64,000 nt of DNA from an uncultured Clostridia bacterium. Lineage in GTDB: Bacteria; Bacillota; Clostridia; Christensenellales; UBA1242. A program made the position numbers and the translations under genes. The DNA is taken from assembly GCA_944383915.1 (NCBI GenBank), contig CALWRJ010000013.1:28743-92742 (forward strand). Direction: 5' to 3'. The notes beneath the pieces are model-generated. The model had not been told where the DNA came from, searched no databases, and was given only the letters and a program-made list of their open reading frames with translations. This document shows, in pieces, positions 764-11,709 of this stretch. The stretch's first letter is position 1. The number at the start of each line of letters is the position of its first letter.

Positions 764-1975
764 TTATCTATTTAATTCTACATTTGGTTTTTGTGGTTTG
801 CAGGGTTGAGAGCAAACGCATTTGTAGTCTGGAAAATCGCGCCTGTGCTTCCCATTACCATATCTTTCTTTTAGAATATTTGCAAGTTGCTTATCATAAC
901 TTTCTAAACCGTCAAATATCTTATCAGCCATTTCATAAGTTAGATTTTTTATTTCCTCTTGTGCGTGCTCACAACAACGCTCTTTCATTTTCATAACAAA
1001 TGACGCAACGCCAGGTTCGCCATTTTGTTGAATGTCAAGAAGTTGTCCAGACTCTTGTACATTAAACATTCTTGCTTGTGGTACATTATTTAAATTTTTA
1101 ATTTTATCTTGCCACTCGTCTTGTAGTTCCAACTCTTTTACAATAGGAGGTACATAGTATTCAGCACTTTCAGGTATTCCTAGTTTTAAGTATGTTGGAC
1201 GGTGTCTTTGTAATTGCGCTACTGCAACAGCCGAGGCCTTATAGTTTACTTCGTAAGTCGTGCCAAAGTGTTCAGGCCTAATTTTGTTATCCCCAAACAA
1301 ATTAAATGAGCGTTTGTAAGGGTCTGTGAGTTTTGGGTTAATAAGCGGTTCATCTAAAATTGTCATATCATCTAATTGTTTACAAAATTCTTTCATTTCT
1401 GGAATTACTAACTTCTCGTACATATTTAAGTCTTTCTTTGAAATCAAATCTTGCGCCCAACCATATATATAATTAATTTGCCTTAAAGATACTCCGTGGG
1501 TTATGTTTGTTTTTGCATCAACGCCTGTAATATATCGCGCGTTTTCAAGTGCAATTTGTTTTTTCTGTCTTGTTGGACTATTGGGATATTTTAATTCAGC
1601 GTGATTATAAAACTTTTCATAAAAATAATCGAAAACCGCTTTTTCTTTGGGAGGAAGGACTAATTCTTTGTGCCTGCCGCTTGTTTCCTCAGTTGAATAT
1701 GTGTGCAAGTTGTTTAAGTACATACAAAATATTTTTGATACATCATCAATTTCAATAACTAAGTTGTACATATCATAACCACTGTGGTGGCGCTCTAAAA
1801 GCGTTCGTCCTTGTCTTTTTAAGGTTGTTTCAAGAGTTTCTGTAGTCATTTGTTTAAGGGGGTCATTTGAAACACAAGTTGCCATCGTTTTTGCGCAAAA
1901 TTGATAGGGCGTATCTACATTGTTATTTTCATTATGCAGGTAAGATTCAGTTGCGCCAATTAAAGTTATTTTCAT
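764..1975 (-). CDS. thyX: FAD-dependent thymidylate synthase ThyX-like protein, tandem two-domain form
   Basis: ThyX-like motifs ENARYI, SLRQ, AQLQRHR, ERCC..AQEEI; about twice the usual ThyX length. Confidence 0.7.
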   Translation of the reverse strand: MKITLIGATESYLHNENNNVDTPYQFCAKTMATCVSNDPLKQMTTETLETTLKRQGRTLLERHHSGYDMYNLVIEIDDVSKIFCMYLNNLHTYSTEETSGRHKELVLPPKEKAVFDYFYEKFYNHAELKYPNSPTRQKKQIALENARYITGVDAKTNITHGVSLRQINYIYGWAQDLISKKDLNMYEKLVIPEMKEFCKQLDDMTILDEPLINPKLTDPYKRSFNLFGDNKIRPEHFGTTYEVNYKASAVAVAQLQRHRPTYLKLGIPESAEYYVPPIVKELELQDEWQDKIKNLNNVPQARMFNVQESGQLLDIQQNGEPGVASFVMKMKERCCEHAQEEIKNLTYEMADKIFDGLESYDKQLANILKERYGNGKHRRDFPDYKCVCSQPCKPQKPNVELNR

Positions 1976-2089
1976 TTGTCTACTCCTTTAAGTTTTTTGC
2001 AGTATATCAACAAATCAAAAATTTGTCAACGATATTTCGCTATACAAAATTAACAAAAAAAGAAAGGCGAGCAGCCCTTCTTAAAATTT

Positions 2090-2581
2090 CTATTTTTTTG
2101 TTGCAAGATAGCCGAATACCGAAGTAACTAGCATACCAACAACACCAAGCCAGAATCCAATACCACATGAAAGTTGTGTGCTTGCAATTCCAATATCACC
2201 ACTAGCGGCATTACTTGCAAATACAAGACCACAAATTAATGTAGCGATAAATAGCAATAACTCTAAAACTGCAATTATTTTGTTGATTTTTGAAATGTCT
2301 GCTTTAATTACATTACATGCTTTTAGAACATACAAAATCATATAAATAGCAGCCAAAGCCAAGCCAATTACAAACATAACATTTACAGCCATTGAAAGTC
2401 CGTCTGCTTCCGCAAAATCTTGAAATAGGTATATAGATAGACTGCCACCGATACCTATTACTTCACCTGATCTTTCAAAAATACTTAAAAATGTTGGAAA
2501 AATGAGTAAAACAAGCCCTGCAAGTGTTAAAATTCCCCAAATAATGCCAAGCAATGAATTGTTTGATTTTTTCTTTGCCAT
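2090..2581 (-). CDS. Hypothetical 4-TM membrane protein
   Basis: Four hydrophobic segments; GGAGG RBS before ATG at 2581. Confidence 0.75.
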   Translation of the reverse strand: MAKKKSNNSLLGIIWGILTLAGLVLLIFPTFLSIFERSGEVIGIGGSLSIYLFQDFAEADGLSMAVNVMFVIGLALAAIYMILYVLKACNVIKADISKINKIIAVLELLLFIATLICGLVFASNAASGDIGIASTQLSCGIGFWLGVVGMLVTSVFGYLATKK

Positions 2582-2745
2582 AGTAAACCTCCTCGCGTAC
2601 AATGATAAAGTAAAAAAAATTAAAAGTCAAACATATATCATTATTTTGCTCATCTTTAACAAAATTATTATTTTGTTTAAAAATTTTCGTTTTATTGTTT
2701 TAAATATTGTACTTTTAATCATCGACAAGTTTTGCATCTATTATT

Positions 2746-3319
2746 AAAAAGGGTTCCAGCCGGTCCATACCTTGCTTGTGTCTATCCGCGGACTAAAGCC
2801 CTTGCGGTAGACCACTGTGCAAAGCACTACAACATTAAGTTTGGTATCTTTTATTTAAAAGGGTCCCAGCCGGCTTAAAAGCTTGCTTGTTGTCTATCCG
2901 CGGGCTAAAGCCCTTGCGGTAGACTACTGCGCAAGCCACTCATAAAACTACGCATCTACGATGCTAAAAGTATTCGTTCTTTTTTATGCTTATATGCAAA
3001 CATAACGCAATAAAAAAAAGAACGAACCCTTTTTCGCTAAAATGAATTTTAGCGAAGTTTTATTCGTTCTCCTTGATTTGTGGTGGGAGACAATGGACTC
3101 GAACCATCGACCTCAAAGACGAAACTCGCAACCGACAAAACACACATAAAAAGCGAAAAGAAACAAAGGTAATACTCTTGCAAACCGCCCTGCTTTTGCT
3201 CGTTATCGCGTGAGGTCTATCACTTGTAACAAACAAAAAAAGAGCGTCAAACAAGGAGTATTGCTTGTTGTCTATCCGCGGGCAAAGCCCTTGCGGTAGA
3301 CTACTGCGCAAGCCACTCA
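2746..3319 (-). repeat. Three copies of a ~60-nt hairpin repeat (TTGCTTGTTGTCTATCCGCGGGCTAAAGCCCTTGCGGTAGACTACTGCGCAAGCCACT) at ~2772, 2883 and 3261
   Basis: Direct comparison; copies 1 and 2 also share AAAAGGGTYCCAGCCGG (110-bp period). Confidence 0.95.
3064..3115 (-). repeat. Exact 52-bp duplicate of the tRNA-Ile 3' 35 nt plus 17 nt of trailer (att-like)
   Basis: Identical to 3449-3500. Confidence 0.95.
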
Positions 3320-3465
3320 CTTCATCTTACGCAAATGACAAGCATTTGCTAATATCCTTGCTCCTTTGTTCCGCTTATGTGCAAGCACAACGCGAAAACA
3401 AAAAAGCAAGTCTATTTACGCAAAAAAATTTTTTGCGTAAAGATTCGCTCGTTCTCCTTGATTTG

Positions 3466-3542
3466 TGGTGGGAGACAATGGACTCGAACCATCGACCTCA
3501 CGCTTATCAGGCGTGTGCTCTAACCAGCTGAGCTAGCCTCCC
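3466..3542 (-). tRNA. tRNA-Ile(GAU)
   Basis: GGGAGGCTAGCTCAGCTGGTTAGAGCACACGCCTGATAAGCGTGAGGTCGATGGTTCGAGTCCATTGTCTCCCACCA; cloverleaf, encoded CCA. Confidence 0.97.
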
Positions 3543-3605
3543 GAAAATAAAAGGAGTTGAAAAATTAAAGTTTATGGGACTACAAGTTGTCTTATAATCC
3601 CATAA

Positions 3606-3682
3606 TGGTGGAGATGAAGGGATTCGAACCCTTGACCCCCTGCTTGCAAGGCAGGTGCTCTAGCCAGCTGAGCTACACCCCC
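3606..3682 (-). tRNA. tRNA-Ala(UGC)
   Basis: GGGGGTGTAGCTCAGCTGGCTAGAGCACCTGCCTTGCAAGCAGGGGGTCAAGGGTTCGAATCCCTTCATCTCCACCA. Confidence 0.97.
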
Positions 3683-3712
3683 AAGGTGTCATTTTCCAAT
3701 TGTGACTTTTTT

Positions 3713-3741
3713 ATTCTATCATTATTTTTCTATATTGTCAA
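3713..3741 (-). promoter_or_regulatory. Sigma-A promoter for the tRNA-Ala/Ile unit
   Basis: TTGACA-N17-TAGAAT with TG extension on the minus strand. Confidence 0.7.
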
Positions 3742-3977
3742 CAAAAAATTTGTAAAAAATAAAAAAATTTAACTCTATAAAAAAACGCAAAAAAATTATT
3801 TTTATATTCTATATAATATATAATATCGCATTGAAAAGTATTAGTATCAATTTGATAAAATTTGTCATATATAATTTTATTGCCATCTAATTTTTTTAAA
3901 AAAAGCCTTAAATTTAATTGCTAAAATTGTCGATTTATTGTAAAATAAGTTTATACTTTATTAAAAGGAGAGTATTT

Positions 3978-4826
3978 ATGGAAACAAAGAAAGTTTCGAG
4001 CGGTTTTAAAAACTGGCTCAAGGTTTTATGTGTAGCGCTTGCTGCAATTCCGTGTATGTTTTTACTTACTGCTTGTGGCGGTGAAACGATTGAGCAGGAC
4101 GAAGCATTATTAGCACTAGCAGCAGCGCAAACTACTATGGATGCTGACGAGACAAACACTTTTACTATTACTATGGAGCAACGTTTAAATGGTGGTGCAA
4201 GCGGTGTAAATGCTGATATGAATGTTAAAAACACTATCGCCGTTTACACTGATGCTAGCGGAAATGTAACAGCTCGAGTTCAAGCCAACGGTACCGTAAG
4301 GGGCGAGTTAAGTTCTTACATTGACATTGATGCTAATCTTAATGCTGACTACAAGGTTGCTACAATTGATGGCGTAAACTACTTCATTAACGAAAATGAA
4401 AAGACTTATGAAGTGGCAGGTGTGTCTGACTACAGTGATATGATATCATTTGGTAGTTACGCGAGTGCTGTTGACTTTATTAATGCAAGTATGCTAGTTG
4501 ATGCTGAGGGTGTAGATATTGCGACTGATTTAAAGAAAATGGGTGAAAATGATTACAACCTTAGATTTACAATCACAACAACAACTTCTTTGGCTGATGT
4601 TGACACAACTACAACTACTGTTTACTACTACGAAATTAGAGATTCTAAAATTACTAAATTCCAAAACACTGCAACTATGAGTTCAGACGAAGGTAATGCA
4701 ACACAGGAAATGATTCTTACTTTCGACTACACAAATCGTTCAGTTTCTGCTCCAACAAGTATTGAAGGTTACGAGGTAGGTTCAGTTTACTTTGATATGA
4801 GTGACCTCGGCAATATTATGCCTTAA
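3978..4826 (+). CDS. Lipoprotein, unknown function
   Basis: AGGAG RBS; signal peptide with LLTAC lipobox; beta-rich acidic body. Confidence 0.85.
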   Translation: METKKVSSGFKNWLKVLCVALAAIPCMFLLTACGGETIEQDEALLALAAAQTTMDADETNTFTITMEQRLNGGASGVNADMNVKNTIAVYTDASGNVTARVQANGTVRGELSSYIDIDANLNADYKVATIDGVNYFINENEKTYEVAGVSDYSDMISFGSYASAVDFINASMLVDAEGVDIATDLKKMGENDYNLRFTITTTTSLADVDTTTTTVYYYEIRDSKITKFQNTATMSSDEGNATQEMILTFDYTNRSVSAPTSIEGYEVGSVYFDMSDLGNIMP

Positions 4827-4875
4827 ATTTAGTTAGACAGTTTTAGTAATTTAACTTTAAATTTTAGTAAAAATT

Positions 4876-4908
4876 AACAAAGAGCAAAACCACCGCTCTT
4901 TGTTTTTT
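4876..4908 (+). terminator. Intrinsic terminator
   Basis: AACAAAGAGC...GCTCTTTGTT followed by a T run. Confidence 0.7.
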
Positions 4909-5026
4909 ATTTGAAAAATTTGAATAATTAATTTTGTGCTTTTTCGTAATCAAATATTAAAAAAGGCATAAAAAAGAAGCACTTCTATAAAGTACTCTTA
5001 AAATGTACATTATAAAGTGCTACTTT

Positions 5027-10852: not shown

Positions 10853-10860
10853 GAGATAAA

Positions 10861-11709
10861 ATGAAAATTCAGTGGTTTCCAGGGCATATGACAAAAGCCC
10901 TTCGCGAAATGGAGCAAAATATCCGCCTTGTAGACCTAGTTATTTATGTTTTAGATGCTCGCGCGCCTTTTAGTTGTCTAAATCCCGTCTTTACCGAAGT
11001 AATAGGGGACAAGCCTATTATTTATGTACTAAATAAGACCGACCTTGCAGATAAAGACGAAACTAAAAAATGGATGCAGTATTTTACAAGCAAAAATTCA
11101 CTTTCCGTTCCGCTCGTTTCTACAATGACAAACGCAAGTAAAGCAGTGGTAAGCGCTATGGAAAAATTGCTTGCGCCTAAATTAGAGCGTAACCTCCAAA
11201 AAGGCATAACAATGCCGTTGCGCGCAATGGTTATTGGCGTTCCAAATTGCGGAAAAAGCACCTTGATAAATAATCTATGTGGCAAATACAAGGCAATTAC
11301 GGGTGATAGGCCAAGCGTTACGCGTGCGACTCAATGGGTAAAAATTGCAGGAAATATCGAAGTTTTAGACACCCCAGGCACTCTTTGGCCCGCGTTCGAT
11401 AATGACGAAATCGCACACAACCTAGCATATATTAATGCAATAAAAGACGATGTTGTTGATGTCGCCGAGTTATCCCTAGATTTTATCGCAAAAATGCTTG
11501 AAATCAACAAACCAGCATTTTTAGAAAGATATAATTTAGAGTTTGATGCCGAACTTCGCCCTGTCGATTATCTAACCCAAATTTGCGAAAATAGGAAGTT
11601 TTTTATAAAGGGTGGCGAATTAGATTACGAGCGCGGGGCTAGGGCAGTGCTAGACGATTTTAGAAAAGGTCGACTAGGCGAAATAACTTTGGATAAGTGC
11701 CCAAAATGA
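10861..11709 (+). CDS. rbgA: Ribosome biogenesis GTPase RbgA/YlqF
   Basis: IQWFPGHM, DARAP, NKTDL, GVPNCGKS, DTPG. Confidence 0.97.
   Translation: MKIQWFPGHMTKALREMEQNIRLVDLVIYVLDARAPFSCLNPVFTEVIGDKPIIYVLNKTDLADKDETKKWMQYFTSKNSLSVPLVSTMTNASKAVVSAMEKLLAPKLERNLQKGITMPLRAMVIGVPNCGKSTLINNLCGKYKAITGDRPSVTRATQWVKIAGNIEVLDTPGTLWPAFDNDEIAHNLAYINAIKDDVVDVAELSLDFIAKMLEINKPAFLERYNLEFDAELRPVDYLTQICENRKFFIKGGELDYERGARAVLDDFRKGRLGEITLDKCPK

Follow-up and report, generated by a model that had tools for sequence, protein, structure and literature searches.

The window, 64,000 nt covering positions 28743-92742 of contig C13, is part of a 1.18-Mb genome that was assembled in 23 contigs and is 96.8% complete. 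The G+C content is 32-38% in most of these contigs. A tRNA operon on the minus strand consists of tRNA-Ala (tgc; 3606..3682; ARAGORN and Rfam, 71.3 bits) and a complete tRNA-Ile (gat; 3466..3542; ARAGORN and Rfam, 67.8 bits) with an encoded CCA. The promoter-like site of the operon (3741-3713, minus strand) is a consensus match only, in which TTGACA, a 17-nt gap and TAGAAT, with a TG, give 11 of 12 consensus matches. The neighboring genes encode Thy1, DegV, SLT and SRP54, together with two open reading frames that have no Pfam match, and none is the integrase, reverse transcriptase (RT) or transposase whose absence had been claimed in a preliminary description of this DNA.

In a few uncultured gut Clostridia, various tRNA genes are followed, immediately behind their CCA, by a non-coding unit of ~200 bases whose RNA-type fold is conserved, and the trailer of tRNA-Ile holds an array of these units. 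Unit 1 (3256..3465, minus strand; subfamily A) matches positions 1-204 of a covariance model (A1, R1) built from 18 units, with an R1 score of 185.6 bits. Its parts on the minus strand are a leader (3465-3449), a U-run (3405-3400), GAGTGGCTT (3318-3310) and the terminal hairpin P5 (3301-3270). The unit is followed by a 140-nt spacer (3116..3255, minus strand) that is unique in the genome, with no other BLAST match. By eye, a 13-nt piece of the spacer (3220-3208) agrees in 12 of 13 positions with the antisense strand of tRNA-Ile between the anticodon stem and the variable loop, and related spacers are seen by eye at the tRNA-Ile locus of two congeners. The spacer leads to a displaced 35-nt 3' fragment of tRNA-Ile (3081..3115, minus strand), an exact copy that runs from the variable loop to the CCA. 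Unit 2 (2878..3080, minus strand; subfamily B) starts behind this fragment and is the second of all R1 matches with 205.4 bits; its parts on the minus strand are a leader (3080-3064), a U-run (3019-3012), P4 (2964-2952), GAGTGGCTT (2941-2933) and P5 (2924-2892). A tail follows unit 2, and the array closes with a partial unit (2766..2857, minus strand; R1 score of 51.9 bits) made of an extra P5 (2812-2780) and a tail (CAAGCAAG...CCGGCTGGAACCC). An extra P5-tail copy is also found behind the unit at the tRNA-Pro-agg locus.

A repeat search returned a 61-nt direct repeat (3055-3115 and 3440-3500) with 93% identity. The mismatches are confined to the first 9 nt on the plus strand, so 52 nt are identical, and 35 of these are the exact tRNA-Ile 3' end. 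The conserved hairpin repeat occurs three times (2779-2828, 2891-2940 and 3268-3317), each time around the P5 hairpin proper at the coordinates given above. These data bear out the 52-bp start shared by two units and the third hairpin copy of the preliminary description, and all of the palindromes that it quoted were found in the sequence. Its unit length of ~240 nt does not hold for the unit proper, which measures ~200-210 nt between the CCA and the last base of the terminal hairpin; the larger figure counts the tRNA fragment. A unit with its tail is 230-240 nt long. The 720-nt trailer folds at -259.7 kcal/mol compared to -195.2 ± 8.2 kcal/mol for shuffled sequences (z = -7.9), and none of 20 shuffles was as low.

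A 400-nt contig from a public DNA run spans 2913-3313 and differs by 3 mismatches and 1 gap. The genome may have been assembled from the sample of this run, and the bridging contig is therefore weak support against a misassembly. The misassembly explanation was rejected because this contig crosses the junction and other genomes show the same architecture. A coding function was also rejected, with longest open reading frames of 10 to 67 residues per unit and no common frame. A leader or riboswitch for the downstream gene does not fit the copies, because the downstream genes vary from copy to copy and are convergent on the unit at Lys-ctt and Pro-cgg.

Units are anchored at tRNA 3' ends

The proposed anchoring at the tRNA 3' end was seen in 22 of 22 full-length units inspected, all of which begin directly at a tRNA end. 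Complete tRNAs precede 16 of the units, and tRNA fragments of 16-45 nt precede the other 6. Three units at Leu-aag begin inside the ACCA and the others begin at the CCA. There are six unit copies after five tRNAs in the genome of the window: Ile, Lys-ctt, Pro-cgg, Pro-agg and Tyr. The last four loci are on contigs other than that of the window, and the Pro-agg unit is split across two contig ends (C18 and C23) that overlap by exactly 109 nt. All 10 matches to the covariance model in this genome fall at tRNA loci (nine sense and one weak antisense), and the model detected no unit copy away from a tRNA locus. Each of the five unit-bearing tRNAs is the last gene of its own tRNA cluster. The CCA is encoded in 41 of 41 tRNAs; in five the leader CAAG(Y)CAAGGAGAACGA follows directly, and the remaining 36 have no unit.

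Units were detected in a single genus

Of 16 congeners, BLAST identified 7 with the unit; genomes of 20 other genera of the family yielded none. Among 24 further genomes of the order there was one 24-nt hit (E = 3.6e-4), which looks like chance. The congeners carry the unit additionally after tRNA-Met and tRNA-Leu-aag, which brings the total to seven tRNA identities in eight genomes. The covariance model identified the same 8 of the 17 genomes of the genus as BLAST. Infernal searches with stricter filters found no match in 57 other genera of the family (98 genomes) or in 150 other genomes across the order, and two unit-free congeners that were drawn again gave no match to the model. Unit-free and unit-bearing genomes of the genus interleave by ffh identity (71-79% versus 75-82%). 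A scan for the P5 pattern in one genome each from 185,579 species returned 12 loci, with titles of uncultured Clostridia metagenome-assembled genomes or 'Christensenella sp.' No locus was found in 2.9 million viral contigs with two motif patterns or in JGI metagenomes with the leader plus core pattern. One JGI locus matched the P5 pattern and was dismissed as a chance match in a high-GC coding region without a tRNA.

The 4227 models of Rfam 15 were searched against window positions 1500-5000 with E values up to 10. Two tRNAs were the only features to pass, and the next best match had 23 bits compared to a gathering score of 56. The gathering score was likewise met by tRNAs only at 10 related loci (E up to 0.05). 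Three weak Plastid-ycf2 hits on the tRNA genes of these loci were far under the cut-off. The unit thus has no Rfam match to rtT, known ribozymes, tmRNA or T-box, in line with the undescribed structured RNA or element proposed in the preliminary description.

The unit has a conserved, covarying fold

RNAalifold was applied to a structure-blind MAFFT alignment of 18 of the about 24 distinct full units (some six later units lie outside the counts) and predicted 49 pairs, of which 27 are compensatory. Paired cells make up 93.2% of the total, compared to 81.5 ± 0.8% in shuffled alignments (0 of 500 reach the observed value) and 33-50% with slid partners. The covariation score is 0.409 versus 0.190 for the shuffles and 0.05-0.11 for slid partners. 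The covariation of the unit is strong, in keeping with the claim that the units are structured and covarying.

The fold starts at the first base after the CCA with P0, a short helix at the extreme 5' end of the unit that is completed by CUUG from within the invariant GAGUGGCUUG. Next come P1, a long-range helix with compensatory changes in 6 of 6 pairs, and hairpins P2-P4, which meet in a four-way junction; P3 is long with 16 of its 21 pairs compensatory. P5 is nearly invariant and is always located 8 nt after GAGUGGCUU (24 of 24). In 15 of 22 units the interior takes the form of P1 with three hairpins; the other 7 prefer a variant with an extended P1. The units at Leu-aag (n = 3) lack a 6-nt spacer and have CUUUGGUGC as the partner strand, which pairs over 9 bp with the GCACCA of tRNA-Leu-aag itself plus AAG. 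About 47 positions are invariant, and many of these are unpaired (AAGGAGAA, GAGUGGCUU and the P5 bulges). This number exceeds the needs of a terminator, which suggests a bound partner or a further function. A separate fold for the tail after P5 was not supported (z = +0.9 to -1.8). A pseudoknot between the tail and the junction fits subfamily B by eye and does not fit the other subfamilies.

The two strands were compared by folding. The consensus energy is -34.3 in the tRNA sense and -19.8 in the antisense, 18 of 18 units fold better in the tRNA sense, and there are 57 G-U compared to 19 A-C pairs. These values agree with the preliminary assignment of the fold to the tRNA-sense strand. The strand bias is no strict proof of an RNA, because G-T wobbles also occur in single-stranded DNA.

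The 5' part of the unit folds as a terminator-like hairpin

The predicted RNA up to the U-run folds as a terminator-like hairpin in 18 of 18 units, with energies of -16.8 to -28.1 kcal/mol. The leader pairs with the 5' arm of P3 and encloses P2, and the helix is followed by at least 5 U residues; hairpin and U-run together take up the first 55-69 nt of the unit. Paired cells account for 91% of this helix compared to 53-71% with slid partners. The helix is almost without covariation (2 of 13 pairs) because the leader is invariant. The terminator-like hairpin and P3 share one strand, and the two folds are therefore mutually exclusive. A simple consensus terminator scanner missed the proposed terminator in the window because a hairpin is nested in its loop. 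Assembled contigs from two metatranscriptome runs covered tRNA bodies only, and these came from other organisms. Three runs recorded as RNA and three guessed to be RNA each gave about 4% of the sampled words.

Probable exchange of units among tRNA loci

A maximum likelihood tree of 24 units (23 different) resolves subfamilies A-D that are common to several genomes and independent of tRNA identity. The Tyr units from four genomes fall into three different clades, and the Ile units are distributed over four. Units at different tRNAs of one genome group together, with three B and two A units in the genome of the window. The 96% identity of unit 1 to the Pro-cgg unit is confined to trailer positions 6-205; unit 2 shares 94-98% with the Lys-ctt and Pro-agg units, and units 1 and 2 are 75-79% alike. 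The exchanged piece would thus coincide with the unit, with the conserved leader and P5 as its borders, and the pattern of identity fits gene conversion between units. The tRNA-Tyr unit and its downstream module share 97.6% identity across 1191 bp with a congener that has 78% identity in ffh, which points to either a recent exchange between species or a binning error.

The array contains a displaced tRNA fragment

Displaced tRNA fragments were counted as copies of the last 12 nt of a tRNA with at most 1 mismatch within 1 kb. A same-strand copy is present downstream of 9 of the 41 tRNAs in the genome of the window, and the upstream and antisense controls both gave 0 of 41. The exact displaced fragments are 15-35 nt long and most of these loci have no unit; in the unit-free loci, other small modules of ~140-300 bp separate the displaced fragment from the trailer. 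The genome has other repeat families, and a 182-bp tandem repeat in three copies lies behind tRNA-Gly-gcc. The Lys-ctt and Pro-cgg units stand alone without a displaced fragment within 1 kb.

The Islander rule recognizes an island insertion by a regenerated target plus a displaced fragment (PMC4383910). The displaced tRNA-Ile fragment of the window is an exact 35-nt copy in direct orientation 385 bp downstream, and the 385 bp between the copies contain no gene and hence no integrase or cargo. The preliminary description proposed an element that builds up through successive insertions at the tRNA 3' end. In that form the view found no support, since displaced fragments at 9 of 41 tRNAs, most of them unit-free, make the 52-bp anchor the usual mark of recombination into the body of a tRNA gene. 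The unit behaves as a trailer travelling with the tRNA end and not as the inserting agent. The layout of spacer plus fragment at tRNA-Ile recurs by eye in two congeners that have different unit subfamilies. Arrays in congeners hold several copies of tRNA 3' fragments and are mosaics with partial units that start from the U-run or consist of P5 plus tail alone.

Discussion

The explanation that we favor, with about even confidence, is that the unit is a co-transcribed tRNA-trailer RNA cassette that is exchanged among tRNA loci by recombination, and that the array in the window is an insertion scar. The unit would be transcribed together with its tRNA from the tRNA promoter. Most tRNA transcripts would probably terminate within the unit because its first part forms a long hairpin with a U-run. 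On read-through, the U-rich strand would pair with the downstream A-rich strand to form P3, and the RNA would refold so that P0 and P1 close the junction of P2-P4, followed by P5. Selection would act on the RNA fold of the unit. Homologous recombination via the conserved ends (leader and P5) would keep the copies alike and swap subfamilies, and the tRNA gene itself may anchor recombination between related species. We infer that the array arose when a small DNA with its own tRNA-Ile 3' end, a subfamily A unit and the spacer recombined into tRNA-Ile. This insertion would have displaced the old tRNA-Ile 3' fragment and its subfamily B unit downstream, and a local duplication would then have given the extra P5-tail copy.

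We consider it unlikely that the unit is selfish DNA, a repeat like REP/BIME/NIME or a MITE, a class that takes in the non-autonomous element of the preliminary description, with copies brought to tRNA 3' ends by a recombinase acting in trans. Any RNA would then be incidental, and the hairpins would have their role in single-stranded DNA or in binding proteins. The unit is multi-copy and restricted to one lineage with a patchy occurrence (8 of 17 genomes), and by ffh the unit-free genomes are as close to the genome of the window as the unit-bearing ones. The mosaic arrays, partial units, contig breaks inside units (C18/C23 with the 109-nt overlap) and other repeat families of the genome would also fit such a repeat. 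A congener has, in order, tRNA-Met, a unit, a degenerate tRNA fragment and a tyrosine integrase gene, and another contig of the same congener has an RT gene, a 45-nt tRNA-Met fragment and a unit. The unit between tRNA-Met and the integrase gene indicates that units can ride on islands.

The search for an enzyme able to move the unit weighs against a selfish repeat, as no candidate was found in the genome of the window. Its one tyrosine recombinase is on another contig and has a close match in 15 of 16 congeners, and its sole IS200-type Y1 transposase is a pseudogene with in-frame stops. No RT, TnpB-type protein or serine recombinase was found in this 96.8% complete genome. Neither RT (10 of 17 genomes of the genus) nor Y1_Tnp (4 of 17; two with units and two without) is correlated with the presence of units. 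The unit has no terminal inverted repeats, the inverted repeats within units being the internal hairpins (I1, I2), and no target-site duplication was seen on reading the unit flanks. No copy in the genome of the window is found off tRNA ends, an integrase lies within 1 kb of about 2 of about 25 units, and the wobble bias and terminator-like fold point to RNA. Comparison with unit-free congeners gave no clean empty site at tRNA-Pro-cgg, where the locus is not syntenic in five of them, and insertion ends at tRNA-Leu-aag and tRNA-Met were not definable because the flanks differ too much between species.

It is distinctly improbable that the unit is a dedicated RNA acting on its own tRNA, either in 3' maturation (by self-cleavage or as a guide for RNase Z/P) or by masking the ACCA until release. 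A precursor with an encoded CCA and a structured trailer needs an endonuclease cut directly after the CCA, and the CCA is encoded in all 41 tRNAs. The start of P0 at the first base after the CCA, the pairing of CUUUGGUGC with the GCACCA plus AAG at Leu-aag, and the many invariant unpaired positions around P0 and P5 would suit such a role. No known ribozyme or family was found among the 4227 Rfam models (E up to 10), however, and units behind mere fragments are equally intact, as in the case of unit 2. The geometry is not constant because the junction in the Leu variant lies inside the helix and not at its base, and the 36 tRNAs without a unit also count against such a role. A bolder form of this idea, which we regard as very doubtful, is a new class of tRNA-tethered RNA that base-pairs with the 3' end of its own tRNA and sets when or whether the CCA end is released. 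The partner strand at Leu-aag would have been rewritten to match GCACCA. Release would occur by self-cleavage at the CCA/+1 junction or follow masking until processing, and a terminator/read-through switch would decide the amount of tethered tRNA.

A leftover arm of the attachment region of a tRNA-integrating island, kept after deletion of the island interior, is highly improbable: the displaced fragments common in this genome and the congener with units beside its integrase and RT genes fit such an origin, but an integrase is absent near most units, the Lys-ctt and Pro-cgg units have no displaced fragment within 1 kb, neither motif pattern had a copy in the 2.9 million viral contigs, and covarying multi-helix folds are not known to be required of attachment-site arms.

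The co-transcribed cassette that we favor has partial counterparts among known systems. The repeats of E. coli tyrT have a 178-bp, 3.14-copy layout. The preliminary description cited tyrT/rtT as the closest analogy, and the likeness is in the layout, with repeats downstream of a tRNA gene that each have a copy of the tRNA 3' end; rtT (RF00391) is an RNA released from the tRNA operon transcript. The analogy does not extend to sequence or structure, for which Rfam gave no match. The unit differs in serving seven tRNA identities in eight genomes of Clostridia rather than enterobacteria, and in its covarying fold of several helices, to which a terminator-like hairpin is the alternative. Within this genome, rtT is best matched in layout by the 182-bp tandem behind tRNA-Gly-gcc and not by the unit.

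REP/BIME of enterobacteria and NIME of Neisseria are multi-copy, hairpin-rich modules that assemble into mosaics where transcription units end, and the unit shares all of these properties. Unlike them, it is strictly tied to tRNA 3' ends with a zero-base junction, is larger, and has a long-range helix and a four-way junction. It also differs from REP/REPIN in having no link to a RAYT-type (Y1) transposase. Small RNAs such as 3'ETS-leuZ of E. coli derive by cleavage from the external transcribed spacers at tRNA 3' ends. In the same way, the trailer of a tRNA precursor could give rise to a functional RNA; the 3'ETS RNAs, unlike the unit, are single-copy and short.

The island scars described by Islander resemble the array of the window in having a complete tRNA and a direct copy of its end, here the last 35 nt at 385 bp, and some congener arrays have several such copies. 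The repeated tRNA 3' copies of the window array are also reminiscent of the tandem accretion of cis-mobilizable elements. The array of the window differs from island scars in that the bracketed piece is only 385 bp long without integrase or cargo and the direct repeat continues past the tRNA into the unit leader. The seven tRNAs, zero-base junction, covarying fold with two conformers and lack of an Rfam match set the unit apart from tyrT/rtT, island scars and mosaic repeats.

The unit family accounts for several contig breaks and long 'empty' spacers in the annotation of these metagenome-assembled genomes. In the cassette explanation, recombination anchored at tRNA 3' ends would shuffle non-coding cassettes from gene to gene and from species to species. 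If transcribed, the unit would provide an example, rare in bacteria, of several different tRNAs that have a large structured RNA as their obligatory extension. Its mutually exclusive folds would then provide a handle on how tRNA operons end and how CCA-encoded precursors mature in reduced gut Clostridia.

Unit copies on a likely island and at an inverted locus

Congener G002, one of 16 other genomes of the genus, likely carries a tRNA-Met island with a copy of the unit at each end, split between two contigs (loci L055 and L061). On one of them, tRNA-Met is followed in turn by a unit, a degenerate fragment and an integrase gene; on the other, the order is RT gene, 45-nt tRNA-Met fragment and unit. 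The RT gene encodes 409 aa with RVT_1 as its sole domain. In a second congener, G012 (locus L065), tRNA-Leu-aag and its units lie between the same two flanking genes as on contig C11 of the Clostridia genome GCA_944383915.1 (G000) but in inverted orientation, and the G012 units form an array made up of several partial copies.

Other repeats and displaced sequences at tRNA 3' ends

A direct copy of the tRNA's own 3' end is displaced ≤1 kb downstream at 9 of the 41 G000 tRNAs. The tRNA 3' flanks considered here lie outside the window, on contigs C2, C3, C10, C14, C15, C18 and C22. A single module family with the core GGCGTGAnAGTG...GGAGCGAGTCCC is located between the trailer and the displaced fragment at six tRNAs (Leu-tag, Leu-cag, Ser-tga, Arg-tct, Gly-tcc and Phe) and is found in either orientation. 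These modules are flanked by an inverted repeat equal to the T-arm of the local tRNA; we know of no mechanism that generates an inverted copy of a target. Arrays of the heptamer AATTAGC and its variants, with blocks both direct and inverted, adjoin tRNA-Leu-tag, Leu-cag and Gly-ccc.

A 182-bp sequence is repeated in three tandem copies with 98% identity behind tRNA-Gly-gcc (C15, ~10853-11260), and every copy opens with the 3'-terminal 15 nt of this tRNA. This tandem is the nearest look-alike in G000 to the 178-bp repeats of E. coli tyrT.

A broken IS200-type Y1 transposase gene lies ~320 nt behind tRNA-Ser-cga (C7, 1772-2101, minus strand) and is interrupted by four in-frame TAA stops. Intact IS200-type transposases have a different residue at each of these positions, so the sequence is a pseudogene rather than a recoded gene.

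Sharing among tRNA loci and possible exchange between species

The unrelated tRNA-Glu-ttc (C2) and tRNA-Lys-ttt (C10) of G000 have a common simple terminator trailer (86% identical) that likewise opens CCA-CAAGCGA; trailer sharing among tRNA genes therefore extends beyond the unit. The tRNA cluster, Tyr unit and following module on C22 (35368-36550) are 97.6% identical to congener locus L067, whereas the ffh genes of the two species share 78% identity. This disparity means either that the two species recently exchanged DNA at a tRNA locus or that the end of the contig was mis-binned.
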